DNA from: Marsupella aquatica
Lineage: Eukaryota > Plantae > Marchantiophyta
Reading direction: 5' to 3'
DNA: 64,000 bases
Assembly: GCA_973895155.1 (NCBI GenBank)
Contig: OZ316894.1
Coordinates: 22,353,867 to 22,417,866 of the forward strand
Shown: in pieces, positions 247 through 25,010 of the stretch
Layout of the letters: every line of letters starts with the position of its first letter
How positions within the stretch are numbered: position 1 is the stretch's first letter
Notes under the pieces: model-generated
Databases searched by the model: none
Told to the model about the DNA's origin: nothing
What the model saw: only the letters and a program-made list of their open reading frames with translations
Made by a program: the position numbers and the translations under genes

Positions 247-375
247 TGAGTCTTACAATAATGTAATTATTCCCACATAAATGAATCATTTTTCAAGCAC
301 ATGTCTCAAACACCTTGCCAAACTATAATTCAATGTGTTGATTTATATTCAATTTGTAAATTAAGAATCTAAACC

Positions 376-398
376 TATCACTATATTCATTAAAACTG
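376..398 (+). repeat. Left terminal inverted repeat TATCACTATATTCATTAAAACTG
   Basis: Exact reverse complement of 30158..30180. Confidence 0.85.
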
Positions 399-419
399 TA
401 CTTTTAAAAGTCCATAAGA

Positions 420-545
420 TGAACCCTAAAGTTTTTTTTTTCAGGCCAAATTTCTATTAAAGCATTCCCAAAAGCTAATTTTTTTCAGCCCAAATATACA
501 CTTTTGAACGCCCAAAATTTTGTTTTTTTTCACCCAAATGTTTAA
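420..545 (+). repeat. Left subterminal degenerate repeats, ~22-bp period (CCCAAA...TTTT)
   Basis: GGCCAAATTTCTATTAAAGCAT / TCCCAAAAGCTAATTTTTTTCA / GCCCAAATATACACTTTTGAAC / GCCCAAAATTTTGTTTTTTTTC / ACCCAAATG. Confidence 0.65.
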
Positions 546-846
546 TAATAACTTAAATCATATATTCTAATTAATTTAAAAATTAGAGTAAATTTAATTT
601 AGTCCAAAAATCAGAGGCCAATACCACTCAGACCATCTATAAATTAAAAAATATAGATGGTCATAAATCAAGGGTCAAAATGAGATTGACCCACTATATA
701 ATTATTAAATTGTCCAATCCAGTGAGAGAGCCTCACACTAAGCATATATCCTAATTATTTACTTTATCCTACATGTTCAAAACATATCCTTTCAAGACAT
801 AATATGAATGTACAATTCAGGGTAGGCACTAGAGCAACCCTATCTC

Positions 847-1896
847 CTAATGATCAAGACAAAACTCATTTGAACAAGAAAGTCTGCTTCCTGATTTATC
901 ATAGCGGATGTCACGGTTGCAAGTATCTCTCGCATGGTGGTTCTTAAACTTATTGGTGAGATCCCTAGTTCTGAGAACTTTCCAAATAAAATGCCTTCTA
1001 TTTTGTGTATGAGGACCAGAATAGTTGTCTCCAAGTATTACGTTTGCAGTTTCTTCGATCTCATCCGTGGTCCACGTCTCCAGTGGTGGGTAATGCTGCA
1101 CCTCGTTCTTTCCGTCCCAAGGAATCTCTTCAGGAGTCACATCCAAGATGGTTCCAAACTCCCTATGGATACAACGACAATCTCCCCACTTCTGTTCCAA
1201 AAGAGCATAGATGGCAGCATGATCCTCCTTGCTTGTTAATAAATTGAAAACAGACCACTTTGGATTGTTGACAGTGATATAATGTTGAACGCAGTAAGCC
1301 TTTCTCAATTTGCAAAGATACGGCCATAATATCTCGGGCAAAAAAGTGTCATTTGAAGCTGTGTGAGTAAATGGATTTGGAAACAATCCATTCACGTCAT
1401 AATTCAAAAATGCCTTCAATGGAGAATCATCAATAAGAACTGTATTAGAAGCATCATATTTTTCTGGAAAACGGTCCCAAATGGTTTGCAAATTCTTCAG
1501 AAGTAAATTGGCCTTCCCATCTGTTATATCTGGCCTTTGGATGCAACTATCAAAGGTATCTTCTTGAGTAAAGACAAACTTGAACTTTTGTCGCTCCTCC
1601 TCAGTGAAAATCAACTCCATTAAGTCCATTGTTTTTGGCCTCCTTGCACAGGTCCAAATTGCGACGTCAAAAACCATGAAAGCTGCATATAGAAATTTGT
1701 GGAGGTATGGGCGCTCCACATACATGAAATTAAACCCTCCACGTCTCCCCCAGTGCACACCACGTAAACTTGTCTGATTTCGCCATGGTCCTGAGCTTCT
1801 GGTCTTAATGCAATCCCAACAAATCTTGTTAAGGTCAAGAACCAAGAGCTTTCGCCGGATCGGAGAGTGTAGTATTGGAGTGAATTCTGGAAACAT
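847..1896 (-). CDS. FCP1/NIF (HAD superfamily, CTD-phosphatase-like) domain protein, transposon cargo; may have upstream exons
   Basis: 349-aa ORF with KLLVLDLN, RPYLHKFL, VAIWT, KNLQTIW and NTVLIDDSPLK motifs in NIF-domain order. DxDxT is altered to DLNKI. Confidence 0.8.
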   Translation of the reverse strand: MFPEFTPILHSPIRRKLLVLDLNKICWDCIKTRSSGPWRNQTSLRGVHWGRRGGFNFMYVERPYLHKFLYAAFMVFDVAIWTCARRPKTMDLMELIFTEEERQKFKFVFTQEDTFDSCIQRPDITDGKANLLLKNLQTIWDRFPEKYDASNTVLIDDSPLKAFLNYDVNGLFPNPFTHTASNDTFLPEILWPYLCKLRKAYCVQHYITVNNPKWSVFNLLTSKEDHAAIYALLEQKWGDCRCIHREFGTILDVTPEEIPWDGKNEVQHYPPLETWTTDEIEETANVILGDNYSGPHTQNRRHFIWKVLRTRDLTNKFKNHHARDTCNRDIRYDKSGSRLSCSNEFCLDH

Positions 1897-3300
1897 TAAT
1901 ATAAGCCTTAGTCAATGCGACTCAAAGTTTAAACAATTACTACGGAGGAAAACTCTCAAAATTTGAAATCAAACAAACTTTGTTATAGCATTTGAAGTAG
2001 AGAGGAACGACCCTAGGGTGACCCTCCTAGAAAAACATTAATTACATTCAATTGCCATTTTTTAGATCCAAAGTATACCTGGGTCAAACCCTTCCTCCAC
2101 AGCAACGCTTTCCGAGGGAATGCCAACAAAATCCTTTGAGGAAGGAGATTCTACGACGGAACTTTGGTCTGTAAAAAAGTATATTATTACAAAGATAAAG
2201 CTTAGATTATCATTAAAATACCAAGAACCAAAGAAAGGGCTAATAATTTCCAATGCTAAAATGCCCAAATTCATCTATTGTTTGATCACCTAGAACACTC
2301 TGTATCTCGGAATTGATACCACTGGGAAGTTGCTCTTCAAAGGATGGGGGTGCAAAAACTGGGTGTAGTATTGCACTAAGGACATAAATCAACATTTAAT
2401 ATCCAAAACTCGGTATTCGATCCCATGGAAGAACAAGAAAGGAATGATTTTTTATCGTTTAACACTTATGAATGACTAAGGTAACAAAAACACAGGTTTG
2501 AGCCTTTTACTATGTTTGCTCAGCAAGGCATAGATTTGAATGTTTGCTTAACATTGTAAATGCAATTAATAAAATGGAAACAAATAACAAAACACAATGA
2601 AATCTTAAGGTATGATGAGGGAGTCTGGAAAACACCAAGGTAACTTCTCATCAATACTTCATTTGATGTGATTCTGGTGGTATATCCGTAAGAACATTTC
2701 TGGAATGGTTTACTGTACTAGGATGATTACTAAAATACCGTCAACACGTCTCAACTTTTCCTTCCAAAGGTACTCAGAAGAAACTAGTAATCAATCACTT
2801 CGATATCCAGTCGGTACTCTGAGTCACGAATAATAAACACCATCATGATCAAATTGAAGTCACAGGTAATTGGTGAGTAACAATCTTTGCATCCGTGCAC
2901 AAGCAATGTCATGCCAAAAACTATGCATCAAGAACTCAAGAAGATGGGTTGTCACCACTTAAGGAATCTATTCCCTCATACTTCTGAGATTCAACTTCAT
3001 ACAAGTAATTTTACTTCAATGATCTAAACTCTCAATCATTCAGACCAAGGAAGGGAGAAGAATTCCTTTGTATTTGCAAGCAAAGGTGATTCCAGTCTGC
3101 AGCACATGCCACAGGCACTACTTTATTTCTTCACACTTGAAAATGACACAAATTCTACTTCATATAGGCTAGCAGGAACCCAAGGAGACTGAGATACTGA
3201 AAGGACATGCCCTTTCATATCTAAAGGGTCTTGAATAAACTTAATGACGGTCATCCTTGAAAAGTGAATGGACACTGCTGAAAGTGTCAAAAATGCAGGG

Positions 3301-3987
3301 GACGCTTCTCAAAGCGTCGAGGTTTGAGCGGACGCTTTGCAAAGCGTCGGTGTTTGCGGTAAAACTAATAAACAGTGATTTTAATCTAATTTTAACTTCT
3401 AAACTAAAAGTCGGAATGAGTTGAAACTTTTCTAGTGTACTCTACTACATATAATCTCTATGCTGACAAAGTTTCAGACTTTTCTGAGATCTCTAAGTGT
3501 CTCAAATAAATCGGTAAAAGTGGCGCGGTGTTATAAAAGTGCGAAAACTGAAAAATTTTCTAAGTGTCGGGAACATAGTGGACGCTTCAGAAAGCGTCCA
3601 AACCCACAAAGGACTTTTGTGGACGCTTCAGAAAGCGTTGGCTGAATTTTGAGGTTTGATCGCGACGTCCGTCTTCTGGTCTTCGGGTGCGACGCTTCAG
3701 AAAGCGGCGAAGTCTGTCTTGGCGGACGCTTCAGAAAGCGTCGATTCTGCTTTGTCTTCGAACACGGTCGGACGCTTCACAAGGCGTCACTTCTCATGTG
3801 GACGCTTCAGAAAGCGTCTCATCGGACTTTGGGGTTAGCGGATGCTTCTGTGGGCGTCGCTCCTCATGTGGATTGCAGAGCGTCGGAGTACAACTGGTTG
3901 GGTGGTGGACGCTTCAAAAAGCGTCGTGGTCTTGGGTGGACGCTTTTCAAAGCGTCCAAAAATACAAGGGACGCTTCACAAAGCGTC
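3301..3987. repeat. Array of ~13 palindromic 18-bp units GACGCTT-N4-AAGCGTC with variable spacers
   Basis: Copies start at about 3301, 3331, 3581, 3622, 3691, 3725, 3771, 3801, 3841, 3871 (degenerate), 3908, 3939 and 3970. Confidence 0.9.
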
Positions 3988-4140
3988 GGCGAAGTCGCGG
4001 CTATGCAAAAAACAGCAAAACTAAATTAATTCTAACTTTCAAACCACATGTCGGTTTGAGATGAAACTTGCAGGGATGATTCTACTACGCAACTACTACC
4101 TCCTGAAAAAGTATGAGACTTTTCTGACCATGATAGCTAT

Positions 4141-7100
4141 TTAACTAAAATAGCAGAGATCGGCTGATTGTGATAATTGTATACAGAGCTCATTCTTGTT
4201 GAAAAAGTGTTTTGGAGTCCGGTTCTTGAATCTTCTAGTCTGCATTGCTTCTCCAATGATGTCCAGTCTTCTTTCTTGGTAGCATGTAAAGAGCAAGGAT
4301 TTATATTGGCGATCCTTGTCCAATATAGGCAATAGCCTCCGATGAAGCATAACATTAGGTAAAGTGTTCGGTTGATCTAAATTGCTACAAAAGGTAACTA
4401 GATTGTACCTTGAGTTAGAAAAAGTTTAAAATTTATAAAATTTCCATCATTTCTAACTAATGTACAGCATTACACTGGGCTCAGTCTCAAGTTCAGTTTT
4501 TTGTAATCTGATTTTGCCATTATCTTTGGAGCATCGTCTAGTGATTCTATCATTCCAACCTTTGGTCCATTTCTCCATATAAAATGAGTTGCAGGACGGA
4601 CTGTTTTCATATATCCAGTCCTGCCGATCTCGGATCCAGAATTTTGTGAAAATGATAATACTACGGGGCTTCCTGTAGAAGCACTTGTAAAAACCAATTT
4701 AGTCTCTGATGAGCAATATAGAGGAGACAGGGGAGGATTTGAAGCACCTGCCTTCTCTTCTTCATTTGCAGCGGTCTCAGGTACTTGACGATCATCCTCC
4801 TTTGCAAGTGCAATGTCTGACATTTCTCCCAATTCTACTGCGTCAATATTGCCTAGACCATCTACGGTTGCCTTCCAATGTGCGTCCGATGTGGACGATG
4901 TAAGATCTGGGTCCGATTGGTGCATCCAATTCTCTACACCCGCAAAGGGATTTCTTGGTGGGTCGCCCTCAGGTCGACCCACAACATCAGCCAACCCCAC
5001 ACCAAAGTAGGGAATACCTACCACTTGTGTTCCACATTCATCCAAATTTTGGGTGACCCTGTCGTCTGTGTCGTGACCCAATTCTCCTTCCTCAATATCA
5101 TCTTCGCCCTGGTCTACGCCTTCTTTGGCACCAACATGCTCGGAAACCCCATCGCGGGCTCTACCAAATTTGGAACCGCCCATCCGGTCACTCATTATGG
5201 AAGGAACTTTCTCGCAGAGAACCCTTCCATATGCCTGAGTGAAATCATATTCATCCTCAGTGTCTGAATATGCAAAGCATTCTCTGAAACACAACAATGA
5301 CACCTTCATAACCTGTCCTCCCGAGAAAAAGTCAAGTATAGTCTCCCCTTCAGCCGAAAAAAATTCAATAATACTCTGCAGCATACATTTTGGCTTAGCG
5401 TGAATATTCACAAAGCCACCTCTACTTCCCACCATCTCAAACATGGGAGCCTTTCGTAAGAAATCTCCAATGTGAAATGCCAAAGTTGACTCAGTCTCTG
5501 TCTCCTTACTTGTCTTACTCTTATTCTTATCTCGCTTCTCCGTCTTGTCTTCCACTTGGAAATCAGGGTCGATCGCCGAATTGTAAGAAAATTGGTAATT
5601 AAATCCAGGCCTGAACACTTGCTTCCAATCAAATTTCTCCTTAGTGGTGATTCCTGCAAAGATTATCTCCTCCATACCACAACTGAAAAGTAAGCCCTCT
5701 GGAACTGGTGTATCACTCCGTCGATAGCTCCCGTAGTCGACGTGGATGTCCATTCCCTTTTCATGTTGCAATTTCCTAAGGGCACTCAAAATGTTTGCAG
5801 CAAGTGGCCCCGGATGCACAGTCATGACAACAACAATTGTTGGATTTCTTGGAAGATCCACAATGTATTGTAGTAATGCAATAATTTCAGCATCGGTCCA
5901 AACATGTTGTCGGAGCCTACTGAAGTCAACAATGGCAAGAGGACACAAAGGCGAAGGCTCTTGTAGCATTTTCGGCACGATCGTCTTCATCAAATTCTCA
6001 CTAAAAAATGTCAAGAAAGGCTCCGTGCGAGAACGACCAATCCCACCAAATTCTTTACAATACAACCCATCTAGTCTGACCATCAGACTTTGTGGGAAAC
6101 TCTCCTTGACCACATTCTTCTTCAATGAATTGTTGAGGTAAACCTCACCCGCTGCTCTCCTCAATTTTGTCATCTCAAGCTCAGATTTCAAGGAAGGCAA
6201 CAATATCACCAGAGACTCCCAAGATGTGCCAACAGGAAACTTCTCACGATACTTTTCCACGAAATAGCCAATAATGATTGTTCTCAATTTGGACATTATC
6301 TTGATTGTAAGGGCCAAGTCTCCCATTGCGACAAGCTCTGATTTGTTGGTGATATCCTTCTTCAGCAAGACACGCTCCTCTTCAACATCCTTCAAGATCT
6401 CAATTATCTGTTTGCTACTAATCTCTCCTTCAAAGCATCGAAAGGTACCGGGAGTGATCAATTTTGGGGGTCTTGGCCCTCCATACCCACCAGCCCCGTC
6501 TTGGAGCTTCCCACTCAACCATTTTGCACACACGTTCTGCCATAATTCAAAGAGCTCATCTTCGGCAAAAAGTAACCAATAAATGCTCTTTAGGCTTGAC
6601 TTCCCCATTGTAACCTTTGCCAGGGCAAACCAATCCTGCATATCCAATGGACTTGACATTAGTTTCAGGGTACAATGCATATGTTAGAAAATTTATACCT
6701 ATGTTTGAAATAGGCAACTTTGATATCTCCATTGCATGCGAAAGATTGAACATTCGATATACAAAAACGGCCGATGGCGGATTAATACTTTTTACAGGAA
6801 TATCAAAAACTTCGCGGATGCCAAAAGTATAATACTGCTCAATATTACGCAAAACCTCTTGGCCTTTGAGCACATCATCTTCTTTGGGTCCTTCTGTCGG
6901 ACACATATCATCCTCTGGATGCAAGACAAAGTTTGAAGTCGACCCTGACATTGGTTTTGATTTCGCAACCTTTGCCTTCTTTGTCTGCTTTTTTTGGGGG
7001 CCCTCATCATCTTCATTTTTTTAACCATCTTCTTACAGCGTGAACTCCCAGATTGTTTCTCTTGTTGAACAACCGGCTCTTGAAGCTTTTGTTTCTTCTC

Positions 7101-8725
7101 TGTCTTTGATTGCACACTTCTTTCCACTGTCTTCTTTCTCTCCTTTGCCTTATGCTTTGCTTCTTTTTTCTTCATCTCTGAAATCCACGTCCGGCACGCG
7201 GCCTCTTGAAACTCTGGACAAAAAATGAAACTCTTGTCGATTGCTTGCTCGTATGAAAAATGTGCCTTATCAATCATCCTTTGAACTATCCAAGTAGACG
7301 GAGGGTCCACACTGTCCGCATTGTCATGCATGTGCTTCTTTACGTAGAGAAATCCAAACACTAGGTCAACTCCACTTATTTGAGAACGCGTCTTCTCAAA
7401 CATCTGATCAATTGTTACTCCATCTGGGAAGAATCCCATATCAGCTACGCTTATCTCCAATCGAGCCATCCACTCAACATTCAGTAAAGTCGAGTAGAGT
7501 TTTATTGGCACTAGAAGTCTCATCCACTGAGATTTCTCATTGGACTCAACAATAATCGTTGCATTGCGGTTGTTGTCCGTGTTCACAAGGACGACTGGAC
7601 CTAGAGTAACAATTGTCTTGCGGTCATTCAATTGACTTGTGAGGCCCTTGAAACAAATCAAGAGACTGCCTTCCGCCGACACCCCAACTTCTAGTGCCCA
7701 TCTAAATCCTGGAGTATCTTGGTCAGGGAAAACAAAGTCCTTGATATCCTCGTCCATAATATTTAACTCCGGCTTCTCAAGATTTTTTCCTGGTAAGAAA
7801 CATTGAAAACAAAATGGTCAGCATCATATTTTTAACATTGACATGTGGAAAACTTTCAAGGTGCCTCGCCCTTGGGGCGAGGCGACAAATAGAAGATTGC
7901 AAAATCTTCTTTGCTCCTAGTGCAATTAGCCCTGCCACCTCATCCAAGCAATCAAACATTATTTAGGAATGCAGACGATATCGCCTCACCCCAAGGGCGA
8001 GGCAACTTCTAGGAAAGCAAACAACATTTAGGAATGCAGACAACATCGCCTCGCCCCAAGGGCGAGGCAACTTCTGGAAAGCAGACAACATTTAGGAATG
8101 CAAAGGACATCGCCTCGCCCCAAGGGCGAGGCAACTTCTGGGAAAGCAAACAACATTTAGGAATGTAGAGGACATCGCCTCGCCCCAAGGGCGAGGCAAC
8201 TTCTGGGAATGCAGACAACATTTAGGAATGCAGATAACATCGCCTCGCCCCAAGGGCGAGGCAACTTCTGGGAATGTAGACTACATTTGAGGAATGCAGA
8301 CGACATCGCCTCGCCCCAAGAGCGAGGCAAAAAATAGAATATAGCTAAAGATCCTTTATTAATGTAAGATACAAGGTCCAATACGCCTTCGGAGCAACAA
8401 GAAATCTAGAATGAAGTAGACGTCGCCTCGACCTTGGGGCGAGGCGACTGCAAAGGAATATAGAAATTTTCCTAATAAGAAATTTGAAATCCAAATTAAA
8501 GTAAAGTTGCCTCGCCCTTAGGGCGAGGCAAGAAGTTGAAGCAGATGGTGCCTTACGTGGAAAAGTTAATTGGGCTTTCTTTGACGCCTCCAACGCATTG
8601 TTAACCAATTTTTGGACATCCGGGTCTTCAGGGTCATATTCATACAGAGAGTTATAATTGAAGTTCAATGACTCTTGAGAACTGGCGGAGGTGGTGGAAG
8701 CTTCAGAACTGGAGGAAGTAGACAT
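4141..8725 (-). pseudogene. Spliced, frameshifted transposon gene with beta-class N4/N6 DNA methyltransferase-like domain and possible ParB-like N-terminal remnant
   Basis: Exon 8725..8557, GT-AG intron 8556..7790 in phase with ORF 6792..7757, frameshift near the A-run at ~7020, ORFs 6556..6951 and 4470..6680, then 65-nt GT-AG intron 4473..4409 in phase with 4141..4350. HAKPKCMLQSIIEFFSAEGETILDFFSGG...RECFAYS matches the xKP...GDxVLDPFxGSG...GRxxIGxE pattern. Confidence 0.65.
7965..8330. repeat. Tandem array, 6 x ~65 bp, each with hairpin GCCTCGCCC-CAA-GGGCGAGGC
   Basis: Unit starts at 7965, 8030, 8094, 8159, 8224, 8290. Further single copies near 7863, 8425 and 8508. Confidence 0.95.
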
Positions 8726-9884
8726 TGTAAGGGGCGAGTGAGATTTAAGATGACATGTGGCAACAATGGAGAATGCCACAGGCTGCAAGAGGGCACTAAC
8801 AGGCAAACAATGATCGAGAGAGCAACCCAAAAGGGAAGGGAGCAAGGCGGAAATAAAAGCCTTAGAGCGAGGCGGAAAACAAATCCCAAGAGCGAGGCAA
8901 AAACAAAAGCCCTAGAGCGAGGCAAGAGGGAGGCAAGGAGTGAGGAGACGAGAGAGGAGGCAAGAGGGAGGCAAGGAAATGAGGCCTCAAGCGCAGGGTC
9001 TGCCTTCCTATACCCCCTACGAGCAAGGAGTCCGAGGAGGCAAGGATCCGAGAGGGTACGGAGGCATCAATGTGCGCCAATGATGGAGACCCTCCTCGGT
9101 GCATGTGATCGTGAGTCACCGATGGTGTGACCACTCACGACCACTCGCGACTCACCTACCAATTTTAAACTTCCGAGCTGTCAGTGGTGTGTGCTCGCAA
9201 CTCACCTATCACTCGTGAGTGATTGGCTGACACCCTATCCGATGTCTACTTGTGTGCTGGGTGCGTGCCTCATCCACCCGTGCCCGATCTGTTGGTGTCC
9301 ACTCGTGTGCTGGGTAATGTGTGGGCTTTTTGCCTCTCAAACTGAGTATAGACCTCCCACAATCCATTTTTTGGTTCATTGTCATTTAGACAGTGATTGG
9401 TACGATCATTGACTCTCCTCTGTCCGAGTGCCTTGTTTAGGTCCGCATGGTTGAATGCAAGGTTTAGTAAGGGCACTGGTGAGCACTATGGTGCTAAGAG
9501 TTACAATGCTGGCATCCAAGGTACCCATTTAGCTTGTACAAGGGTGGACAGAGATATATTGCGGAGCAGGTTAGTGATTTTATTTATTTATCTTAGAAGT
9601 ACTAGCTCAACTACATCTAATTCAATACCTTTAAGCCAAACCTAGATTAAGATTTACACATTAGGTTCTAGATCATATATTTTACTCATTCTAGACCTTT
9701 ATCCACAATCTAGCATGTGTAGAACTTACTGTACCCCTTTATGTGATTACTAACATAGTTTTTAGAAGTGGGTCGGAATTATTTCGTGCCGACCTGACTA
9801 TGTCATCTTAACTAGCATTTTAAACTGGTATATAAAAGCATAAGCAAGATAGTTTCACAAATAGTTTTGACATAATTTCAACTT

Positions 9885-10220
9885 AATAGTTGGAGTAGGG
9901 TCGAAATAATTCTGACCCAACTTATCAATGTTTAGTCAATTAAATCATTTTAAGACATATTGTTGGAGGAGGGTCGAAATAATTCCGACCCGACTTGTAA
10001 ATGTTTAGTCAATTCAATCATTTTAAGACATATTGTTGGAGGAGGGTCGAAATAATTCCGACCCAACTTGTAAATGTTTAGTCAATTCAATCATTTCAAG
10101 ACATATTGTTGGAGGAGGGTCGAAATAATTCCGACCCGACTTGTAAATGTTTAGTCAATTCAATCATTTCAAGACATAATGTTGGAGGAGGGTCGAAATA
10201 ATTCCGACCCGACTTGAATG
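9885..10220. repeat. Tandem array, 5 x 73 bp, each with imperfect palindrome GGGTCGAAATAATTCCGACCC
   Basis: GGGTCG cores at 9898, 9971, 10044, 10117, 10190, plus an inverted degenerate copy near 9770. Confidence 0.95.
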
Positions 10221-10342
10221 TATTTAGGGTTTTGAGTGATTTTACAATATTTTTTGGAGGAGAGTCCAGATTTTGAAACATGATCGTAACATGGGGAACT
10301 TAACAATTTCTAACTTTATTTGAATATAGATAGTCCGCTATC

Positions 10343-13300
10343 ATGATCAATTTTACACGAGGGGATGAAGTGTCATTGGTGATCGATGGATTTGAAACGG
10401 CAATTGGGATAGTTCAAAAGGTTGACCCCCAGGATACTATACAGAACATTTGTCTAGGGGACAATCGAATTGGGGTATTGATCAAAAAGTGTTTTGATGG
10501 ATCGCGTCAACTTCCATTTCCTTCGCCCAAATTTTCTACATTGGCTGAGGCAATTGACTCCTGCGTGGTTTGGGATTGTGCATTGGCATACTTGAGGTCA
10601 TCAACTCAGCGTCGAAGAATCAATGTCGATGATTTCTCTTTGGCTGGAGATGCTGGAAATGATAAATCCAAAATTGATGCAAGGGTTGAAGAGGACGTGT
10701 TCAAGGAAAGAGATGAAGTTCAGATGTTCATTTTTGATCAGTTGGTTGCAAATGGAGTCGTTTTCAAGACAAATCCGATGGATATTTGTCATACTGAAAC
10801 ACTCGGGGTTGGTCGCATAAGTATAAGAATATCTGATATTGTTAAGGGAAATCAAAAATTGCCATACTCGCACCCTGGAGCTGATACAATAGAAGAGGCC
10901 TTGCATACCTGGGTTATCTGGGATGTTGCGCATGTTTCTAGAAAGGGCACTCTACGAGATTTTGGCGTGTTTGGTAGTTCAAATATTTTCAATGATCTTC
11001 CATTAAAAGATTTTACACTACATTCCAACTGGATGGCGGAGGAGGTTGATTTGTATGACGCTTCTCGTTGTCGAAAGGTTGCAACAGGTGTTATCACGGT
11101 CCCATTTGAAACAGGTGCCGTTGATGATGAACTTCTTGGTGCAGATCATGTTGGTGTTGCTGTTGTGAATATCAATGAACCCGGATTATTTCCAAATATC
11201 CGTGTTGGTACCCCTGGCTTGGTGAGGTGGGAAATCAAATCCCTTCTATTGATTTCGTCTCAAAGGTTTCTTGGGGATATCCTTGAGGAAGTTTCAGAGA
11301 AGTGGATGGAGTCGGGTCGAACTAAGGGCGATCCGGATTCGGATGGTGATGGTAAACCTACAAAAAGACCATATAATTTCATTAGGAGGACAAAAGTTGA
11401 TCTTGAGGAGAGGAAGAAAAGGCATTTGGAGTCGAGGGCACTTTTGAAAATTAACGAGGAGTCCATTGATTCCATCCAAAGAGAAGGTTGTTGCAAGCTG
11501 AAGTGTTGCTTGAACATGCCCAGGGAGGACTTAGAGGCAATGAGGAGGGAATACCATGGAATGTCAAGTGACAACAAAAAAAGTCACATCTTTAGTCTCT
11601 TTGGGTGTAGAGAGGAGCAAGTCAAGAGAAAGGGATTTTTTGTTCTAAAGGGACGTGTGGTTTGTAAAGATGCATTTATTAAAATGCATGGGTTCAGTAC
11701 AACAAAGTACTATGACTACAAAAATCAATACAAAGCTGGTTGCACAATTGGTTTCCATGGAAATCAGGGACAACGGAAGACACGATCAAGCACTTTGCAC
11801 GCTCGCGCCTTGTTGGAGTCCATTTTAATCCAAAATGGGGAACCAATGCCACATCTTCCCTATGGTGGGTTCAACGGCACTGACACTATTGAATATCGGC
11901 TCCCATCTTGTTTTACTAAGAAGGAGATTTTCCAAGAGGTGTTTACCAAGATGGAATTAGATGGGTTTGCTAAGGTTACTGAAGTTACTATGTACAACAT
12001 CTGGAAAAACTCATTTGATAATTTTGACTTTCACAAGGGAAGTGCATTTGCCAAGTGCACATTTTGCACTGAGTTCAAAGATCAATTGATGCGGGAGAAG
12101 AGAAAAAAAGAGCGTGCAGAGATTGAAGAGAAAAGAGCGCGACATCTTTGTGAACAAATGTCAAGAAGATATGTTTACTATGCTCATAGGGTTCTTGCAA
12201 AGAAGGATCCTCAAAACTATCTTTGCATTATTCACGATAAGATGGATCAAGCCAAGACTTGGATCCCCAGGTTGGTCCCCACTCCAAATCCCTCTCTGGT
12301 AGTGGTCAGCCTTTGCCTATTGCTCTTACTGGGATGTTAACCCATGGAAGAGATCCTGGAGTGTATGCACATTTTAGTTTGACTGGACTTTGGCTTGGAG
12401 ATGCAGACTTTACCGTGACATCTTTGGCCAAATGCCTTCGAGATTTGGAAGATTACACAGGAGACAAAACTAGAGACCTTCTTGAGGGATTGAATTGGAA
12501 TGCAACTAGGCCAATATTTCAGTCCCTTCTAGACTTTGAAGCATTTCTGGCCGGTTACTTGGAACCCAAAAATGTTTCAATTGTTCGATTTCAAGGCATT
12601 GAAGATGGTCAGGAGACTAAAAAGTCAAGCACAGTGGATGTTGGTTCTAAGGATGATCCTGAGACTACTAGGGGCTCTTTCAAGCCCTTACCAAGGCACC
12701 TAATGTTGCAGATGGACAATTCAGGGAAAGATAACAAAAATCAATATGTGATGGCATTTTGCACTGAGCTTGTTAGCAGGGGGTGTTTGAAACTGTGCAA
12801 ATGTCATTCCTCATGGTTGGCCACACCCATGAAGACGTGGATGCATTATTTTCTCAAGTATCCAAACAGGTCAGATACAAAGAGGTTGCTACCCTCTTGG
12901 GGTTGATGGCTGAGGTTTGGGAGTGTGAAAGCATTCATCCTGTACCACGATTGATTCAAGAGGTTGCATCTTACAAGGAGTATTTGAAAACTTTCCAGGT
13001 GAAAGAGATAGAAGGTCACTCAAAACCAGTGGCTTTTCTTTTCTCCATGAGGGATAATGTGCCAGTGTATCAATATAAAGCACATGTCAAGCAACCTTGG
13101 CTTCCGGCAATGGGGAGGTCCATTTGGAGAACTGATCCCATCACAAATGCGCTCATTTGACCGGAAGGCCAACCATTTGCAAAACCTATATCTGGGATGT
13201 ACAAAAGAAGGCTGGAGAAATCATCCCATTCCTTAATCGCTATATTGATTTCTTGAAGAAAAGTTGTAAGGATGAGACCTCTGCAGCATATAAAGAGAGA

Positions 13301-14056
13301 TTTCCTCTGGTCAAATATTGGGAGAATCTTGTGCAAGCACTGTCCGAGGAACTTACAATAGAAGGGGAGGGGGAAAGATATTTGTCATTGACAACTGATT
13401 TTTGGCCAAAGACTAACCATGGCACAGGTTACAAGATGATTTTGGGGACATCTCAGCCGTCAAGTGAACCTTCTCAAAATCCAGAGATGATGGACCTTCA
13501 AAATGAGTACATGGAAGAGATGGAAGATCAAGCTGCACCCTTTGTTGGTGCACGACAAGAGCGAGAACCTGCACGTTGGATTCCTCTACAAGATATTCAA
13601 GAAGGTCACTTTGTATTTTTACGTCCAGAGGATGAATGGGAACAGGAAAATGGCAAAGGGCGTTTCTGGTTGGTTCGAGCTTTGGGTGGTGTGGATCCAA
13701 ACCATGAGGTTCCCTCAATAGATTTGCAACATATTGAAGGGTCTTCTTCAACGTCTGTTGAGAGCATTCCTCTTAGGAATGCTCCTATGTTCCAAGTACA
13801 ATGGTGGAGGCCTAAACATGGTAAGCATGATGCAAAGGATGATGTTCGATATGAACGTTGCTTTCAAACCACTAAGACTTGGGAGCTGGATCCTGGGTTT
13901 GACAATGTTACTCAAAGTTAGCAGTTTGCAAATTCTGCAATGTATGGGTTTAAGTCAGGTGCTAAAGAACAAAATATTATGGATAGAGGTTTGACAATTC
14001 CTAAGAATGTTTTGAAAACTCTCAAAATTTACATGGAAGGTATAATTGATGAGTAG
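10343..14056 (+). pseudogene. Disrupted DUF7869/Sola-like DDD transposase with three N-terminal En/Spm TNP1-like domains
   Basis: Four overlapping ORFs join via frameshifts and stops. Motifs: CC..CC, CTFC, IIHDKMDQ, LQMDNSGKDNKN, SFLMVGHTHEDVDALFS. Three repeats of (A/V)xGxV...LG...LP...W at the N-terminus. The frame continues past TAG 13919 to TAG 14054..14056. Confidence 0.8.
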
Positions 14057-14139
14057 ATTGATAGAACTCGTAGGTTACAAGTCTCCACTCAAATGACTTG
14101 TGATTAAGAGGGTCGAGTTGATTTCCATGCATTGGTCTA

Positions 14140-17100
14140 TGTGGTGCGTCCCATGGCTCCCTAAACCCAAGAAACCCCCCAGCTCAAGCCGATTCCCGCA
14201 GGTTTTGTGTTTGGCGAGGCCGTTTCCGCGGCTTAGCGGCATGGGACGCTGCTAACCTTCTACTACTACTATTAACATTTTACACACATATACTGGACAG
14301 ATCCTTCATCGGGTCATGAGATACGTAGCCGGCCTAATATAGGCCTTCCCCTGTCTTCCCCTGTCTTCTTGTTAGGTATGTTTGGATTCCGCCGCCGGAA
14401 TGATCCCCAATAGGCTTGGTTAAGCCGCTAAGACCTCTCTCAGCTCGACACATCCAACTCTCACTCCCCTGCTTACTTTCCTTCCTTCTGTTGATGTGGG
14501 CACTCTTCACACAAGTTAATGCGACACACAAATAGCAAAATGACTCATTCTGACTGAGTCATACCATGCACTTGCCATACAAACAGTACATCTCATACAC
14601 AAGTTCTGCGAACTAAGCCGTGAGGCCAACTCTATTCAGCTCTTAGGCATGAGGAAACATGAATATACACAAGGGTCATTGTATGACTAACCGAGAGCTT
14701 CTCGTACTACTTGATCCCAGCCCGGCTGGTGCAAACTAAAAACTTGCTAAAGAAGAGGCCCTGAGCTCCCCGCTGCCCAGGTACTTATCCTGGTAGTGGA
14801 TCCGCCATTCTTTGCATCGTAAGCCTAATCTACCTGACAGTAATCTACTTGCCCGAATCTACCTATGTACAGCAAGGCAGGAGCACAAGTGTTGCTCCTA
14901 CCAGTGGGACCGCAATCCCACTAAGCTAAGTGTCAGGGCCGCTCCTGGTTCTGATCCTAATCCTAAACGTGGAGATCCGCGCCCGCCCTGCCCACTCACG
15001 CCTCCTCCCTCCACGTCCGCCCTCCCTAAAAGGAACGGCGCCCTTGCACCGTCACGACACCGGTGGTGGATCCTCAATGGACGCCCCCAACACTTCCTCC
15101 TCAGCCACTGCCGTTGGCCCGCCTACTGACAGATTACCTGCCCTTGACCGAGTCAACTCTCCATCGGCCTGACTGGGTCCACCTTCGGCTTCAGCCTCGA
15201 CACCGGCCTCGGCAATACCCACGGCTTCGGCCTCAGCCACTCCCACGGCTTCGGCTTCAGCCACTCCCTCGGCTTCGGCCTCCCCTTCCCCTAGGGTAGT
15301 TGGATCCTTAGCCGTGACCCTGTCTGGGGTCGGTGCTGGGTCTACCTCCTTGATCACCACGGCCTGTGAAGTCGTATTACTCCTTGACCCTAAAGGTTTC
15401 CGCTTCTTCTTCGTTGGTGGCTCGGCAGCTGGTCCCTTCCCCTTCCCACTTACTTCCGGCACTGGTGCAGTTGACGCGGCTTGTCCTTCGGCAATTACCA
15501 TCCCTGGTAACTGGTTTGTCCCAACGGGAGATGGACCTGCTGCAGCTAAGCATTTAAATACTGCGGCTTGTTTCTTCAGCCGCTCTGTTTGGTTGTCGGC
15601 CCGCCGCTGTAGGTTCTCCATCTTCCTCGTGATTTCCTCCAACTCCTCTTGGGTTTCATCCAGGTCCTTACGTGCCCCCTCCAGCTCGTTTTTGGCCTCC
15701 TCCTGCTCCCTGTGGGCTTCCTCCAATTCCTTCTTCAAGGTAGCCCTCTCCTCCCGGGTTGCTCTTAGCTCCTTGTCGAGCTCTGCAATGATGACAGACT
15801 CCATCTGGTTCATCTTGGCGTAAGTCTGTTCGAGCATCTCGTCCTTCTCCCTTAGGTCGGCCTTGAAGCTGGCCGTCAGGGACGCAAGCTCCTGCTGCAG
15901 CGCCATAATCCCTTGATAGGATTTCCCTAACTCGACCTCCTTCTGCTCAAGGGCTCCGCGGATTTTCTTGAGCTCCCCTTTCAACGCCCATTCCTTTCTT
16001 TGGGTCTCCGCCATGGCCCGGCTGTTGGCTGTTATGTGGGCCTCCTCTGTATTCTTCAGCTCTTGCTTCCACTTCTCCCTCTCTTTGATCGTGTCGGCCA
16101 ACTCTTCCTGCGTCTGAGTCAGTTTATCCTTGATATTCTGATTATCAGCCTGCGCGGTGTCCAACTGCCCCTGCATGATGTTGAGCTCATGTCGTTTAAT
16201 CCGCAGTTCATCTTGGGCTTTCTTGGCCGCCCTTAGATCTTCAATCTCGGCTTCCATCCTCCTAAGTCGCCGAATGACCTCGTCCTTCTTGCTTCTCTCT
16301 AAAGCCACCGCTTCTTCTAATTGGTGCTTCTCCAACTGCTCCCTATGGAAAAAGGGTCCTACCTCCAACTCCTCTCCAAAGATGCCGAGCGCAAGTTCCC
16401 CACACATCTCACCATACTCCATGGCTCTATTCTTAGCGTAGGTGGAGTAAGTAGAAGTGATCGGCATCGCCCATCGTGGCCTCTGCTCCCAAGCCGTCCT
16501 GCGGATCTCTTCAATCGTGGCTAGAGGTTTGCTTCCTTTTTCGGCTAGCCGCCTGATGTCCTCCGGCCAATCTCCTCCTGGTAAATCCTTTTCCTTAGCC
16601 AGGGCGGCCTCTTCCTCCTGCTTGATTCGCTCCTGAAATTCCTGCACCGTCTGTTTTATGCCGTCGAAGCTCGGGGGAGCAACATCTGGTGGGGGAGACT
16701 CAGGGCTACTCTGCTGGTTGGGGTCCCCTCGCACTACCCTTGGAAGTGTGGGGACAAACCGGCCACAGGTCCTTACTCCTGGAACGTGATGGTCCGACCC
16801 ATAGCCGGAATTATCATGGCTGCAGTCCTCCACTGCCTCCTCTACCTCTTGGACGTCCGGCTTCTCCCTCTCCTCTTCGTCGGTAGGAGCTTCAGGCAAT
16901 TCTGCCTCAGATTCGGAGCTTGAGGTTCCCACGTACATTCGAACACCTGGCTTGGATTCCGGCCTGATTCTCTCCTTGTCTCCAGCAAAGGGGTTTTCTC
17001 TTGTGAGCCGGTGTAGGCCTACCTCTGTAGTAGTGTCCTGCATTGTTGCCGTTGCCGTTGTTGTTGCCGATGCCGATTTCTTTTCTTTCTCCAGTAGTTT

Positions 17101-18790
17101 CAGCAGACTCTGCATGCCTGGTTGCTGCATCGGCAAGTCTTCCTTCCTGGGCCTAAACACCTGCTCGATCGTAGGACTAACAGGTGGTTGAGGCTTCTTA
17201 GCCAACGGCCTCGGCGTTGGAGCTTCCTCGGGTGCCCTTACCTGCAGGGGAAGTACCGGGGCAAAAGTCTGACCTCTGGCATACCGGCACAACAGCGGCA
17301 TGTGATAGCCAAGCCGCGACACGCTCCCCATGCCGATTACCTGCTGCTCCTCCTTTAAGATCTTCTTCAATTGGTTGAGGAGGTACCCGTTGTAGTCCCG
17401 GCTTGGGTCTGGCCTTTCTGCCAGATAGACCTGTGCCTTGCCGATCTCTGCCCTCGGCAAGTTACAATGCATGGTCACCCGCAAGAAGTCGATCATCTCT
17501 CCTATGTGCGGGTTGGTGCAGGTGTTCCGGAAGAAGCCATTCTTCGTTGATGGCCCGGGGAACGACCGGAACTCCTTGTCAGGCAAGGTCTTCCTGGTAT
17601 CAACTTTGGTCTTATTGCCTATCGGCAGGCCAAACACTTCGGCAATTACCTTGGGAGTAAGATAGAAATCCTTCCCATATATCCTCGTGCAATTGGTCTC
17701 GGGTTCCCATGACCCCACGAATTCTAATAGGTCTGACTCCGGTACCTCCGGCTTCAGCCATGGTAATCTTACAAAGGCCTCCAAGCCGGATCCGGCCATG
17801 AAGCCTTGGTACTTCTTGGTCTGCATGGCCGTAAAGCATGCATCCTCCTCCCGTGCAAAATGTAGTTGCACCTCCACCGGTAGGGTTGCCGCCCAGCCCT
17901 TCCAGGTGTCATCTCTGGTTGGAATGGCCTTGATGGGATCGACCTCCTCCTCTTCGGCTTCTCCCTGCCTCCTGCTCTGCTGCTCGGCTGGCTTCTTTGG
18001 TGCCGCCGACCTCGTTCTTTTTGCCGGGGTGGCTTCATCGTTGACGGCTCCCTTCCTCTTCATCTCTGCTGCCGTGGAGGTTTCTCCTAGCACCGTTGCC
18101 TGGGTCCACCTTTCCGTGCAACCCTTTAATTCCCAGTGTATGTCGTTGCAGTTCTTGATGGCCTCTCGGATGCCGACGACGCTGTCTTTGCAAAACAGAA
18201 GATCGTCGAGTTGATTGGAAGTAGGCGTCCACAGGAACTCGTCCTTGATGAGTTCGCCTCCTAAGAAAGCCGTCTTCTACAGCTCCCACAATCGAGCGAG
18301 CTCCTGCCGTTCTCGAGCTGCCCTTTCTGATTCCTCGTCCTCGTAAGTCTTGATGTACTCAGTTGCCCGTTCGAACAGGCATCCCCAGAAATGTGCCGCT
18401 TGATTGATGTTGCTCATACCCTCCTTAGGTCGATCGTCGGTATCTACTCTCTCCCCGAGTGCTTGCCTAAGCAGCTGACAGTAGTTGGCCTCCCGTAGTC
18501 GTCTGCCTAGTTCGTGCTCGCAAATGAGCCACCATCTCCTGCAAGCGCTCCTTACCCCTCTCCTCTGCCGGTCCTTCTTCCCGTTGATCCTTCCTAGCCG
18601 CCGACGCTTAACGCGCCCTAACCCTAATCGGGTTTTCACCCTTAGCCTTACCTCCGGCCTCGGCCCGGGTTCCATGGTTGCCCCTAATTGTTTATATTTT
18701 CCTTGTTTTGTCACTATACTAAGGTGTTCCTAGGGTGCCTTCCTGCTTTACCCACTTAACCGGCCGAGTGATTCCTGTCTAGGCATCACA
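14140..18790 (-). repeat. 3' LTR (4651 bp)
   Basis: Near-identical to 25015..29665 and directly preceded on the minus strand by the PPT. Confidence 0.97.
15052..18675 (-). CDS. LTR-encoded accessory protein (PMD/Athila-extra-ORF-like domain plus long coiled coil), one in-frame TAG at 18277..18279
   Basis: The 145-aa and 1013-aa ORFs share a frame and are separated by one TAG plus 61 open codons. ATG at 18675 is in ACCATGG context. LLEFVGSWEPET...LTPKVIAEVFGLP motif and E/K/L heptad-rich region. Confidence 0.8.
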
Positions 18791-20236
18791 TAGCTCCCCA
18801 CTTAATTGTGAAGCGTCCTCGCAAACAACTTCATCTTCGTCCATATAGTATTTCTTGAGGCGGTCATAATGGATGCGAACTGGATATACCTCTCCCGTAA
18901 TGTTGGCCAATTGTACGGAGCCATTGGGGAACATCATGGTTACTCTAAAGGGTCCTAACCAGCGAGTGTAAAGCTTTCCTGGAAACCTACTATACCTACT
19001 GTCATAAAGTAGCACAAGATCACCGGTATGAATACTAACTACTTTTAACCTTTTATCATACTGCTGCTTCATGATATTCTGTCTATATTCTACTCTCTCG
19101 GCTGAAATCATTCTCGCTTCCTCTAAAGCTTCTAACCTATATTCTCGCTCCTTTAGGCTCTCCTCCGCTGAGGCTCTTTCCTCAATTGTAACTTGAAATA
19201 TCGGTATCTCAAGTTGCATGGGTACCAGGGCTTCTTGTCCAAAGGTTAAGAAGAAGGGTGTATGACCGGTAGTGGATTTATAGGCAAGATTGTAAGCAAA
19301 AACAGCAACAAACAATTTATCATCCCAATCGAGTTTGTTCTGAGCTACTGTCTTGTTCAATATCTTTCCTATGATCCCGTTTGCTCGTTCTGTCAAACCG
19401 TTTGCCTTTGGATGGTAGGGAGTAGTAGGCCTATGTTTAACTAAATACTGCTCATTTAAACGACTAATTATATCATTCAAAAAATGGGTTCTTCTATCAC
19501 TAACTAATTCTAGGGGTGCTCCATACCTGGTGAAGATCTGCTCATACATGAATCTAGCCGTAGTAATTGCATCATCCTTCGTTGTTGGTCTGGCCTCTAC
19601 CCATTTAGTTGCATAATCCGTAGCCAGGATTATGTACTTGTTCCGTCGAGGGTGGGTCAGTGGTTTCAGAGGTCCAATGTAATCAATACCCCACTTCTCG
19701 AATGGTGCCAGAGGTAGAATAGGGTGCAGTGGATGCCTGGTGGACGCCCTTGGTCCTCCCGCTCGTTGACAAGGATCGCATTGTTTGATAAACTGATAGA
19801 CATCTTTGTGCAAGGTGGGCCACCAGTAACCGGCATTTAATATCTTCTTAGACGTGGTTACTGGGGCAAAATGTCCTCCGGCCTCCTCTCCATGCATGGC
19901 CCGTAGGACTCGTTTTACCTCTCTCTTTTCCAAACACCTTTGAATCGTGCCGTTGATTCCATGCTTGTGTAGTATGCCTTTAATGCACTGATACTGTCTG
20001 ACCTTCCGCACAAAGACTGCGGCTTGCTCTCGGCTTAATCCTGGCTGTAATCTGGAAGTGCTGAGAAATTGTAAAATCTTAGGGTACCATGTACCAGCTA
20101 TTTCCACAACGAATAGCTCCTCGTCGGGGAATCGATCATCGATGCAATCCGTGGCAGGTTTACCTGTGATCCTTGAAAAGAAGTCGGCATTGGCATGTAA
20201 CTTTCCCGGCTTGATCCTTAGCTCATAGTCAAACTC
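18779..20236 (-). CDS. pol: End of RNase H plus integrase (3' part of pol)
   Basis: HHCC (MHG..GHF..CDPCQ), DDE (GIDY, VSD, TER) and GPF module. In frame with the RT ORF across one TAG. The stop codon lies inside the 3' LTR. No chromodomain. Confidence 0.95.
   Translation of the reverse strand, partial: EFDYELRIKPGKLHANADFFSRITGKPATDCIDDRFPDEELFVVEIAGTWYPKILQFLSTSRLQPGLSREQAAVFVRKVRQYQCIKGILHKHGINGTIQRCLEKREVKRVLRAMHGEEAGGHFAPVTTSKKILNAGYWWPTLHKDVYQFIKQCDPCQRAGGPRASTRHPLHPILPLAPFEKWGIDYIGPLKPLTHPRRNKYIILATDYATKWVEARPTTKDDAITTARFMYEQIFTRYGAPLELVSDRRTHFLNDIISRLNEQYLVKHRPTTPYHPKANGLTERANGIIGKILNKTVAQNKLDWDDKLFVAVFAYNLAYKSTTGHTPFFLTFGQEALVPMQLEIPIFQVTIEERASAEESLKEREYRLEALEEARMISAERVEYRQNIMKQQYDKRLKVVSIHTGDLVLLYDSRYSRFPGKLYTRWLGPFRVTMMFPNGSVQLANITGEVYPVRIHYDRLKKYYMDEDEVVCEDASQLSGELCDA
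18791..18804 (-). promoter_or_regulatory. Polypurine tract
   Basis: TAAGTGGGGAGCTA immediately before the TGTGATG start of the 3' LTR. Confidence 0.85.
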
Positions 20237-22021
20237 CTATAATAGCAAAATCCATCTTGCTACTCTGCCTGTAAGGTCCGGCTTATTGACTAGGTACTTC
20301 AAACTTTCATGATCAGTATGAAAGATTACCTTGTACCCTAGTAAATAATGCCTAAACTTTTTACAAGAATAAATGACTCCTAATGCTTCTCTTTCCGTGG
20401 TAGAGTAGTTCCGTTCGGCATCGGCAAGCTGACGGCTTGCGAAGTATATGGGATGGTCCCTTCCTTTCTCATCCAACTGACTTAGTACTGAGCCAATACA
20501 GAAGCCCGAGACATCTACAAAAACATGAAAATCTTTGTTCCAGTCCGGTGCTATCATGACTGGGGCCTCTACTAACATCTGCTTCAATTCTACCACCGCT
20601 GTGACTTGTTCGGGTGTGGGTTCGAAGTCTGCTCCTGCCTTGAGCATATTGGTTAATGGTAAAGCCAGCTTGGCAAAATCCTTGATGAACCGGCGATAGT
20701 AACCAATGCATCCCAAGAAGGATCCTACATCCTTTATGTTCTTAGGTTGCATGATATCTAGCCATACTGCTAGCTTACCTTTGTCAATCTCAATGCCCTT
20801 CCTTGATACCTTGTGACCTAGTAGCACCCCCTCGGTTACTGCAAAAAAACATTTATCTGGGTGTAACTTGAGACCCACCTCTCTACATCTCATGAAGGTT
20901 TTCCTGAGGTATTTAGCATGTTTCGATGCCTTCCCGAATACTGCAAAGTCATCAATGAAGATTTCCATGAACTTTCTCAAGTAATCATGAAAAATGTTCA
21001 CCATTAATCGTTGGAACATAGCTGGTGCGTTGCAGAGTCCAAACGGCATACGATTGAAGACATAGATCCCCCATTCCGTGATGAAGGCCGTCTTGATTTG
21101 GTCTTCCTGCCGAATCCTGATTTGGTTATAACCAGAGTATCCATCCATGAATGAATATAGTTCATGACTGGCTACCATGTCTAGTACCATATCAGTAAAC
21201 GGTAAAGGAAAATGGTCTTTTAATGTTGCTTCATTCAGCTTCCTGTATTCCTGACAAACCCGGATCTTGGGTTTACCATCGGGTCCAGCTTTCTTGGGAA
21301 CTATCACAATTGGAGACACCCAGTCTGAATGCAGGACTGGAGTGATGAATCCAGCTTCCACTAGTTTGTCGATTTCTGTTTTGACCAGCAGGGAATACTT
21401 CGGGTTCATCCTTCGAATTGGTTGTCGAAATGATTTGGCTCCTAACATGAGATCAATTCGATGTTCCCCTAGTGTTGGATCTACTCCCTTTAGATCTTGG
21501 TGACTCCATGCAAACACATCCTGAAATTCAATCAATAAGTCACTGATCTCTTTCTCGAGCTCAGGTGCTAGGTTTCTCCCTAAGTTCAGTTCTCTTCCCT
21601 CTCCTAAGTCGAGCTTCCGATATTGCCGTGCTTGGATCATATTAATCTGCTTCTTCAAATTCGGGTCCAGTTCGGCTTCCAGTCTCTCTAATCTCATACC
21701 TCCATAAACTGGGATTTCGGCTGGACTAGCCGAGTCGGTCCCTTCCTTGGTGTCCATAGATTGTCCCCTTACCGGTCTATTCGGTTTTGAATTAGTGGTC
21801 GGCTCCCCTTCCTGCCTTGGCTCTAGATCGTGTCTGTCCATCTCATCCACCTCTTGCTCCTGAGAGTTAGGCCGCTGTGCTCTCTCGGCTTCTAATAGGG
21901 CCTCAATTTGTTCTGCCCTCGTAATCGGCTTGTATGCCGATCCCTTGGTATTTAATTCCTTGCCGATGATCGATGGCGTTGTGGACCCCGTTGGCTCTGC
22001 CACAACGCCTGCAGAAAATCC
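20237..22021 (-). pseudogene. pol: Reverse transcriptase-RNase H with premature TAG
   Basis: DHFPLPF, DGYSGYNQI, MPFGLCNAP, FIDDF, RNYSTTERE, TDH. WILLL*EFDY has TAG in place of the conserved Gln. Confidence 0.95.
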
Positions 22022-24945: not shown

Positions 24946-24992
24946 TACCTACGCCTCCGTTCTAACTTCATATCTCACGGCTTAAGAAATGC

Positions 24993-25010
24993 CCCCTCCA
25001 TCTAGCGCCA
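24993..25010 (-). promoter_or_regulatory. Primer binding site (cognate tRNA not assigned)
   Basis: TGGCGCTAGATGGAGGGG begins 4 nt (TTTT) after the CA end of the 5' LTR. Confidence 0.85.

Follow-up and report, generated by a model that had tools for sequence, protein, structure and literature searches.

Locus and predicted fold

The window analyzed here, a 64,000-nucleotide stretch of Marsupella aquatica contig OZ316894.1, contains a DNA transposon with an accessory gene on its minus strand; part of this gene encodes a domain predicted to have the bacterial beta-class amino-methyltransferase fold and to be catalytically dead (the pseudo-methylase domain). A first-pass annotation had placed such a fold at positions 5250–5960, with LAIVDFSR standing where (D/S)PPY would be expected. 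The motif strings it quoted are real, and a single minus-strand stop-to-stop frame of 737 codons (4470–6683) holds all of them; the domain, however, extends further than had been proposed. The domain and its motifs are as follows.

5193–6029, minus strand: domain of beta-class amino-methyltransferase fold, predicted catalytically dead, from the model and structure searches (boundaries approximate)
5916–5939, minus strand: motif IV strand LAIVDFSR, Asp present, PPY absent; aligns with ILCDLPY/ICCDPPY of phage enzymes; model strand E38–42
5391–5408, minus strand: motif X, NIHAKP; Lys in 74/78 family rows
5316–5345, minus strand: motif I, ETILDFFSGG, one residue shorter than FxGSG (family alignments)
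5262–5285, minus strand: motif II strand RECFAYSD, Ser in place of the Asp/Glu of active enzymes (family alignment, phage controls)

The window protein matched Pfam PF01555 at E 0.004, under the curated cut-off. A single-sequence search of the PDB with the domain returned no matches at E up to 10, an NCBIfam search with four frames returned no families, and a PHROGs search returned weak methylase matches only (E 0.08–0.1). A family profile of 65 rows matched M.RsrI at E 6e-9. Scored against a profile of seven phage beta-class enzymes, the window domain reached 14.2 bits, while the best of 2000 shuffles reached 10.5 bits, a value exceeded by 17 of 33 real family rows.

An AlphaFold model of the domain built from 65 sequences (predicted local distance difference test, pLDDT, 89.8; predicted TM-score 0.89) superseded an earlier, poor five-sequence model (pLDDT 56), the helical N-terminal part of which gave nothing above Z 5.2 in a structure search. 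Foldseek ranked CcrM first (E 5e-10), followed in order by PvuII, TTHA0409, MboIIA, HpyAVI, RsrI, BceJIV and the bdelloid N4CMT. A wide structural search likewise returned CcrM at Z 17.8 (root mean square deviation 3.7 over 216 aligned residues). Its rows 1–11 were prokaryotic beta-class enzymes and N4CMT (Z 17.8–14.5) and its rows 12–20 were METTL3/14, MTA1/9 and METTL4 (Z 11.7–8.7), such that the top 20 rows were all beta-class or MT-A70 enzymes; the row after them fell to Z 5.4. In the model the Rossmann fold is circularly permuted, with motif IV ahead of motif I. The domain thus almost certainly adopts the beta-class amino-methyltransferase fold, as judged from the model, and structure prediction agrees with the earlier proposal of a Rossmann methyltransferase. 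A chance resemblance to methylases was ruled out by the structure search Z scores together with the shuffle control.

The second strand of the model is LAIVD, which lies approximately 33–36 residues past the start of the structural alignment, and the counterparts of this region are Asp31 in CcrM and Ser107 in N4CMT (PMC10406627). Both full-length HHalign and a MAFFT merge placed LAIVDFSR on the phage ILCDLPY/ICCDPPY. Two results count against this placement: the N-terminal half of the domain could not by itself be aligned to the phage enzymes by HHalign (probability 0.04–0.13), and one global alignment misplaced that half. The position of motif IV therefore rests on the fold and the two full-length alignments. 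On this alignment, the earlier reading that (D/S)PPY is missing is correct for the PPY; the Asp of the motif is kept.

Erosion of the active site across the family

A profile search of 1.84 billion representative sequences revealed a large family of 178 clusters at E ≤ 0.001 (178 proteins, 109 of them at E ≤ 1e-10; the best 150 of the 178 were listed). The family alignment, obtained by iterated hidden Markov model search, comprised 120 rows including the query, with many fragments and a few near-duplicates. Among the 63 rows covering motif IV, Asp occupied the motif column in 59 and Glu in two; no row had Pro at +1 or +2 and one had an aromatic residue at +3, so that the Pro-Pro-aromatic signature was lost in 63/63 rows. 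The pattern [DSN]PP[YFW] occurred nowhere in any of 165 family-search proteins examined. The motif I loop, DFFSGG, was one residue short relative to FxGSG in 73/74 rows. The ribose-binding acid of motif II was absent from the aligned column in every row (0/68), with an acid one column further on in 26/67. Motif X retained Lys in 74/78 rows and His in just 26/75, and an acid of motif III was partly present (Asp/Glu in 21/41 rows at one column). In the phage beta-class controls, D[PL]P[YF], GSG and the motif II acid were all present (7/7); these seven were drawn from ten loci, L004 and L007 having been left out for split or short genes and L008 for being partial.

In N4CMT, the motif II Asp binds the ribose and a motif I Ser and Thr bind the carboxylate of S-adenosylmethionine (SAM), and the target base is held in place by two parts of SPPY, the Pro carbonyl and the Tyr (PMC10406627); replacement of the Ser and Tyr of SPPY abolished activity (PMC8885841). 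Given these roles and the loss of the corresponding positions across the family rows, canonical methyl transfer is very likely absent from the family domain, and its binding of SAM is doubtful. The half of the domain described earlier as a clear SAM-binding half is recognizable, but with a motif I one residue short, no motif II acid, and the ribose and carboxylate positions lost. Identity is 85–95% in the motif columns, whereas the median for all 263 columns is 32%. In a tree of 40 rows (33 from the family, aligned over 190 residues, and seven from phages), the domain occurs on six or more deep branches. Conservation of the motif columns across deep branches indicates that the loss is old and that the domain has been maintained ever since. 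That the motif is missing merely through decay of the window copy was ruled out, as the loss is family-wide and contigs of runs X1 and X5 span motif IV gap-free; the earlier view that the domain is probably inactive thus holds for the family.

What weighs against a simple loss of function is that the motif IV Asp, the motif X Lys and the glycine loop are conserved, which ligand binding or altered catalysis would also explain. The domain could accordingly be an enzyme still, SAM-dependent or not, that marks element DNA through an unusual active site: the Asp, the Lys and DFFSGG persist, the motif III acid does so in part, and 26/67 rows have an acid one position past motif II. We consider this very unlikely, since the same Ser and Tyr replacement in SPPY abolished N4CMT activity (PMC8885841), and the Pro carbonyl, the aromatic residue and the SAM-holding Ser/Thr/Asp of N4CMT are missing in nearly all rows.

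One sequence stood apart. P0150, a 101-residue JGI fragment with a full-length motif I loop, matched the family profile at E 1e-6; it was excluded from the family counts as a probable fragment of an ordinary enzyme (it finds 1005 phage records). P0150 may stand nearer to the active ancestor than do the phage control enzymes.

Family members and a predicted ParB-like domain

Hosts could be named for eight of 24 proteins looked up: seven were from Riccia sorocarpa and one from Calypogeia fissa. The Riccia paralogs are spread over five different chromosome-size contigs. In a pattern scan with alignment A2, none of 71 stretches from viral contigs and none of 127 from prokaryote genomes were related; one of 382 from metagenome contigs was, a 1.8 kb locus (L001) with a stop within the domain.

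Relatives carry the methylase fold C-terminal to a ParB/DUF3723-like domain within a single frame (e.g., P0159, 1009 residues). Eight family proteins share the motif [IV]SG[QA]HS in this domain, which we take to be a ParB (DGxHR-like) motif. The Atlas neighbors of the domain are fungal proteins, DUF3723 among them (0.95–0.96). DUF3723 is a Starship transposon accessory family said to be distantly homologous to chromosome-partition proteins of bacteria (PMC10104507), and its fungal members are Atlas look-alikes of the ParB-like domain. The same order, in which a ParB-like domain precedes the beta-class methylase, occurs in the phage ParB-methylases of ParB-terminase loci, and a phage protein labelled ParB/Sulfiredoxin matched the model at E 1.5e-7; the phage enzymes, unlike the window family, are predicted to be active. 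The domain N-terminal to the methylase fold is therefore predicted to be ParB-like. Speaking against this, Pfam, PHROGs and PDB sequence searches with the N-terminal domain gave no ParB match, and the assignment is based on the match of Atlas features and on the short motif.

Other fusions were less frequent. A NIF domain lies within the same protein as the methylase-like domain in three of 36 relatives scanned (P0062, P0111 and P0126). P0109 has a weak SH3_2 match (E 2e-4) C-terminal to the methylase-like domain. Longer fused forms were represented, weakly, by P0002 alone among 7987 candidates scored.

A likely Sola-like carrier

The gene lies between terminal inverted repeats (TIRs) in an element that has itself received a long terminal repeat (LTR) retrotransposon. 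The features of the element, with open reading frames (ORFs), are as follows.

373–376, plus strand: left target-site duplication, ACCT; the same four bases lie past the right TIR
377–408, plus strand: left TIR, first 22 bp perfect; a contig of run X5 begins exactly at 377
847–1911, minus strand: NIF/FCP1-like HAD phosphatase-domain ORF, downstream of the pseudo-methylase gene on the same strand (Pfam NIF, E 3e-16)
10334–13921, plus strand: DUF7869 transposase, divergent to the pseudo-methylase gene, frameshift-broken (Pfam DUF7869, E 2e-15 and 1.5e-23)
14140–29665, minus strand: nested Gypsy LTR retrotransposon, outside the element proper; LTRs of ~4.65 kb, 5-bp duplication GTCTA
30148–30179, minus strand: right TIR, then ACCT (30180–30183), from inverted-repeat comparison

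The TIRs are perfect over 22/22 bp and extend imperfectly to ~32 bp; subtracting the Gypsy element and a 2.1-kb solo-LTR-like insert leaves an element of ~12.2 kb. Contigs from four of six listed sequencing runs, representing three organisms, were compared with the window. They covered 30/30 bins of 300–14140 in 4/4 runs, and a joined form lacking the solo LTR was seen in 4/4 runs. With TIRs, a 4-bp duplication and a DUF7869 transposase bracketing it, the pseudo-methylase gene is transposon-borne, as had been proposed, and we hold this with high confidence. One point tells against extending it to the family: the linkage of gene and transposase is shown for the window element only. Bacterial contamination was ruled out by spliceosomal-type introns and nested plant retroelements.

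The transposase motifs may resemble those of Sola1; besides the DUF7869 match, three candidate transposase aspartates lie in HDKMD, MDNS and HEDVD. A literature search for DUF7869 found nothing. Sola transposons are described with a 4-bp duplication, TIRs of 11–1124 bp and sizes mostly of 2–9 kb, some exceeding 15 kb (PMC10741241), and the window element, by its 4-bp duplication, short TIRs and size, fits this description. The element is thus likely Sola-like, as far as these sequence features indicate, with the 4-bp duplication seen at this single insertion. An alternative that begins with CACTA and has AT duplicated (2 bp) is less likely; it would leave the four-base match to chance (~1 in 256). 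The Sola passages of the same source mention no methylase-like cargo (PMC10741241), and the main text of the Riccia genome paper contains neither the word Sola nor the word methyltransferase.

The N-terminus of the transposase (10334–12340, plus strand) contains three alike beta-rich repeats of ~80 residues each with VxW ends, and its C-terminus (13136–13921) contains a Trp-rich segment. Neither the repeats nor the segment has a Pfam match; from their sequence, they could be chromatin-reader-like folds.

The NIF-methylase fusions in relatives tie the neighboring NIF frame to the same element. In this frame (847–1911), LDLNKI stands at the position of the HAD phosphatase motif, DxDxT; this cargo domain may also be a pseudo-enzyme. 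The NIF/FCP1-like family is tied to RNA polymerase II, and a NIF/FCP1-like domain fused or adjacent to the pseudo-methylase domain would suit a pseudo-methylase that binds RNA and acts on the transcripts of the element, in the manner of METTL14 or of the inactive DIRS1 domain. METTL14 and MTA9-type chains do match the model (Z 9.5–10.8), and inactive transposon methylase domains have been proposed to bind template transcripts (PMC4738411). Bacterial DNA enzymes, however, match the model clearly better (Z 14.5–17.8), the element is of the cut-and-paste type without an RNA intermediate, and the partner domain is predicted to be ParB-like; we regard an RNA-binding role as improbable.

The nested Gypsy element is young: its LTRs are 99.87% identical (six mismatches), with single stops separating the gag, reverse transcriptase-RNase H and integrase frames. 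Each LTR contains a 1074-codon antisense-side coiled-coil ORF (15052–18276 and 25927–29151). Just beyond the transposon, at 34672–36548 on the plus strand, lie exons of a Peptidase M20 gene of the host; its product is aminoacylase-like, and a hydrophobic signal is predicted at the N-terminus.

Gene structure and damage in the window copy

The pseudo-methylase gene is split by predicted introns and by later insertions, as follows.

8557–8725, minus strand: predicted exon 1; GT-AG splice keeps frame
7790–8556, minus strand: predicted intron 1, a 767-base GT-AG intron with nine palindromes inside
6717–7789, minus strand: predicted exon 2, with N-terminal domain, Lys-rich linker and start of the ParB/DUF3723-like domain (tblastn with P0009 and P0159; alignment A4)
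4475–6635, minus strand: main exon, with helical region, pseudo-methylase domain, acidic low-complexity linker and small C-terminal domain; acceptor AG/GATTGG
2364–4474, no strand assigned: solo-LTR-like insertion in the 3' end of the gene, TG...CA, 5-bp duplication; joined 2357–4474 form in 4/4 runs
2240–2358, minus strand: final ~39 codons of the gene, severed by the solo LTR (tblastn with P0002–P0004 C-termini; translation)

The N-terminal domain of the accessory protein (7179–7787, minus strand) is 33% identical to P0009 over 203 residues and has no Pfam or NCBIfam match; a stretch related to it opens P0130. Comparison of 6717–7789 with P0009 proceeds in two frames (33% and 65% identity) with a frameshift near 7020. 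The start of the ParB/DUF3723-like domain was located at 6697–6936 by tblastn with P0009 and P0159, and the remainder is deleted at ~6716. At that point the match to the relatives ends where the relatives run on for ~150 residues, and a contig of run X1 has 260 unaligned bases ahead of 6717, which together point to an internal deletion in the window copy. The acceptor context of the main exon is common to the window gene and locus L001. The window copy is damaged by the solo LTR, a deletion, frameshifts and the nested Gypsy insertion.

The solo-LTR-like insert contains ~11 palindromic repeats of the GGACGCTT-N4-AAGCGTCC type at 3297–3986. In three runs, contigs stack up on this insert in many variant forms, the pattern of a diverse repeat family.

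Palindromic arrays and a possible DNA-binding role

Nine perfect or near-perfect palindromes of the form GCCTCGCCC-N3-GGGCGAGGC lie at 7863–8529, all within predicted intron 1, where 0.02 would be expected. Six of them stand in a 65-bp tandem array, and joints in contigs of runs X1, X2 and X3 suggest a further copy in the deleted segment. A repeat scan located a second array.

9889–10216, no strand assigned: 73-bp tandem array of five near-palindromes (GGGTCG-N9-CGACCC type), ahead of the transposase

CG is present in both palindrome types. The observed/expected ratio of CpG is 0.79 and 1.12 in the arrays, against 0.44–0.76 in the ORFs of the element, a difference too thin for a claim of methylation protection.

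VANC21 strips methylation from its own element, in which it binds tandem motifs located within introns and between genes (PMC5735166). Beta-class enzymes are multimers whose subunits divide SAM binding and DNA recognition between them (PMC10406627), an arrangement that suits palindromic sites. By analogy, the palindromes fit as candidate targets of the pseudo-methylase protein. Two considerations detract from this: the transposase or host factors could bind the palindromes instead, and the unrelated solo LTR has a palindromic array too.

Taken together, a model can be proposed, to which we assign about even odds, in which a ParB-methylase captured by a transposon no longer transfers methyl groups and instead regulates or protects the element by binding to its repeats. 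The ancestor would have been a ParB-methylase protein of the phage kind. After capture, methyl transfer would have been lost while the scaffold was retained with its Asp/Lys pair and glycine loop; a dimer would then bind the palindromic repeats in the introns and spacer of the element and, once bound, would organize transcription or transposition of the element family or ward off host silencing, as VANC or TnpA. A DNA-binding role for the domain, taken by itself, is slightly favored, and the arrays in non-coding DNA and the ParB-like fusion would fit it; anti-silencing specifically, one of the functions proposed earlier, is considerably less probable.

The dead domain could instead be a dimerization or protein scaffold only, with DNA recognized by the ParB-like domain, the helical parts or the transposase. 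The erosion of both the catalytic and the SAM contacts would fit such a role, as would the many hydrophobic or glycine residues among the most conserved columns and the multimeric operation of beta-class enzymes (PMC10406627). Conservation of the motif IV Asp (59/63), the motif X Lys (74/78) and the motif I loop, polar pocket residues beyond what a bare scaffold seems to need, makes this rather unlikely in our estimation.

The CG in both palindrome types also bears on two further possible roles: a reader of N4-methylcytosine (4mC), N6-methyladenine (6mA) or 5-methylcytosine, or a decoy that, by pairing as a subunit with a beta-class enzyme of the host (the 4mC writer of liverwort sperm, for example), would block or redirect that enzyme. 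The named hosts are liverworts, the lineage with a sperm-active beta-class 4mC enzyme (bioRxiv 2021.02.12.428880), and labor is known to be divided between beta-class subunits (PMC10406627). In 62/63 rows, however, there is no aromatic residue to stack on the flipped base, leaving no evident base-reading cage, and we rate a reader or decoy as a long shot. An extension of the repeat-binding model, with a dead beta-class subunit clamped on CG-containing palindromes as a sequence-specific counter-silencing device that reads modification or subverts the host beta-class 4mC writer (a "METTL14 for DNA"), is likewise improbable.

Relation to described systems

The pseudo-methylase domain shares with the beta-class enzymes CcrM, M.MboIIA, M.RsrI and M.PvuII (PF01555) the fold and the permuted order, motif IV preceding X-I-II, together with an HPTxKP-like stretch and remnants of motif I. 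It differs from them in the absence of PPY, a shortened motif I, the missing motif II acid, a sequence identity of only 6–16%, and its placement within a transposon protein of >1000 residues.

Among eukaryotic proteins, the bdelloid N4CMT (Z 15.2 to the model) and Marchantia MpDN4MT1a/b also have the bacterial beta-class fold, and MpDN4MT1 shares the liverwort setting; Marchantia has two TSPPY enzymes active in sperm (bioRxiv 2021.02.12.428880). These host enzymes are active and contain (T)SPPY, and N4CMT carries a chromodomain in addition, whereas the window family lacks (T)SPPY and is multi-copy and transposon-borne. The window gene is tied to these 4mC enzymes by the shared fold alone. METTL14/Kar4 falls in the same structural class and is also a pseudo-enzyme, its active site being disrupted (PMC4738411); METTL14, however, is a host protein, present in single copy and part of an RNA writer as one of its subunits, and the window element encodes no active partner.

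The methylase domain of DIRS1 is likewise transposon-borne, predicted to be inactive in all copies and nonetheless retained (PMC4738411). It belongs to Group 2, probably derives from PCIF1 and resides in a retroelement polyprotein (PMC4738411), while the window domain belongs to Group 1, is permuted, lies in a TIR DNA transposon and is fused to a ParB-like domain. VANC of VANDAL elements is, similarly, an accessory of plant DNA transposons with tandem motif arrays in non-coding regions (PMC5735166), but showed no sequence or domain likeness to the window family (for which Pfam gives PF01555 only); binding and demethylation are demonstrated for VANC.

A 2016 survey of eukaryotic adenine methylases recognized six Group 1 acquisitions, none described there from land-plant transposons, and its supplement may list relatives (PMC4738411). 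No published description of the pseudo-methylase family was found in the literature searched, a scope outside which most subscription journals and Repbase Reports fell, so that an entry for the element is possible. Transposon-borne dead modification enzymes are a known theme, to which the family-wide pseudo-methylase on a liverwort-type DNA transposon adds a further variation.

Implications

Transposons with DNA-modification domains have been described before, as in DIRS1 (PMC4738411). Dead beta-class methylases that form a large and old family on liverwort DNA transposons suggest a non-catalytic use of the fold in DNA binding or scaffolding, in one of the two eukaryotic groups found with a reported bacterial-type 4mC writer. 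For annotators, PF01555 matches in liverwort genomes should be treated with caution, as they need not mean 4mC or 6mA writers. For bryophyte biology, the family offers a candidate for self-recognition or silencing resistance of DNA transposons, with candidate target sites present in the sequence.

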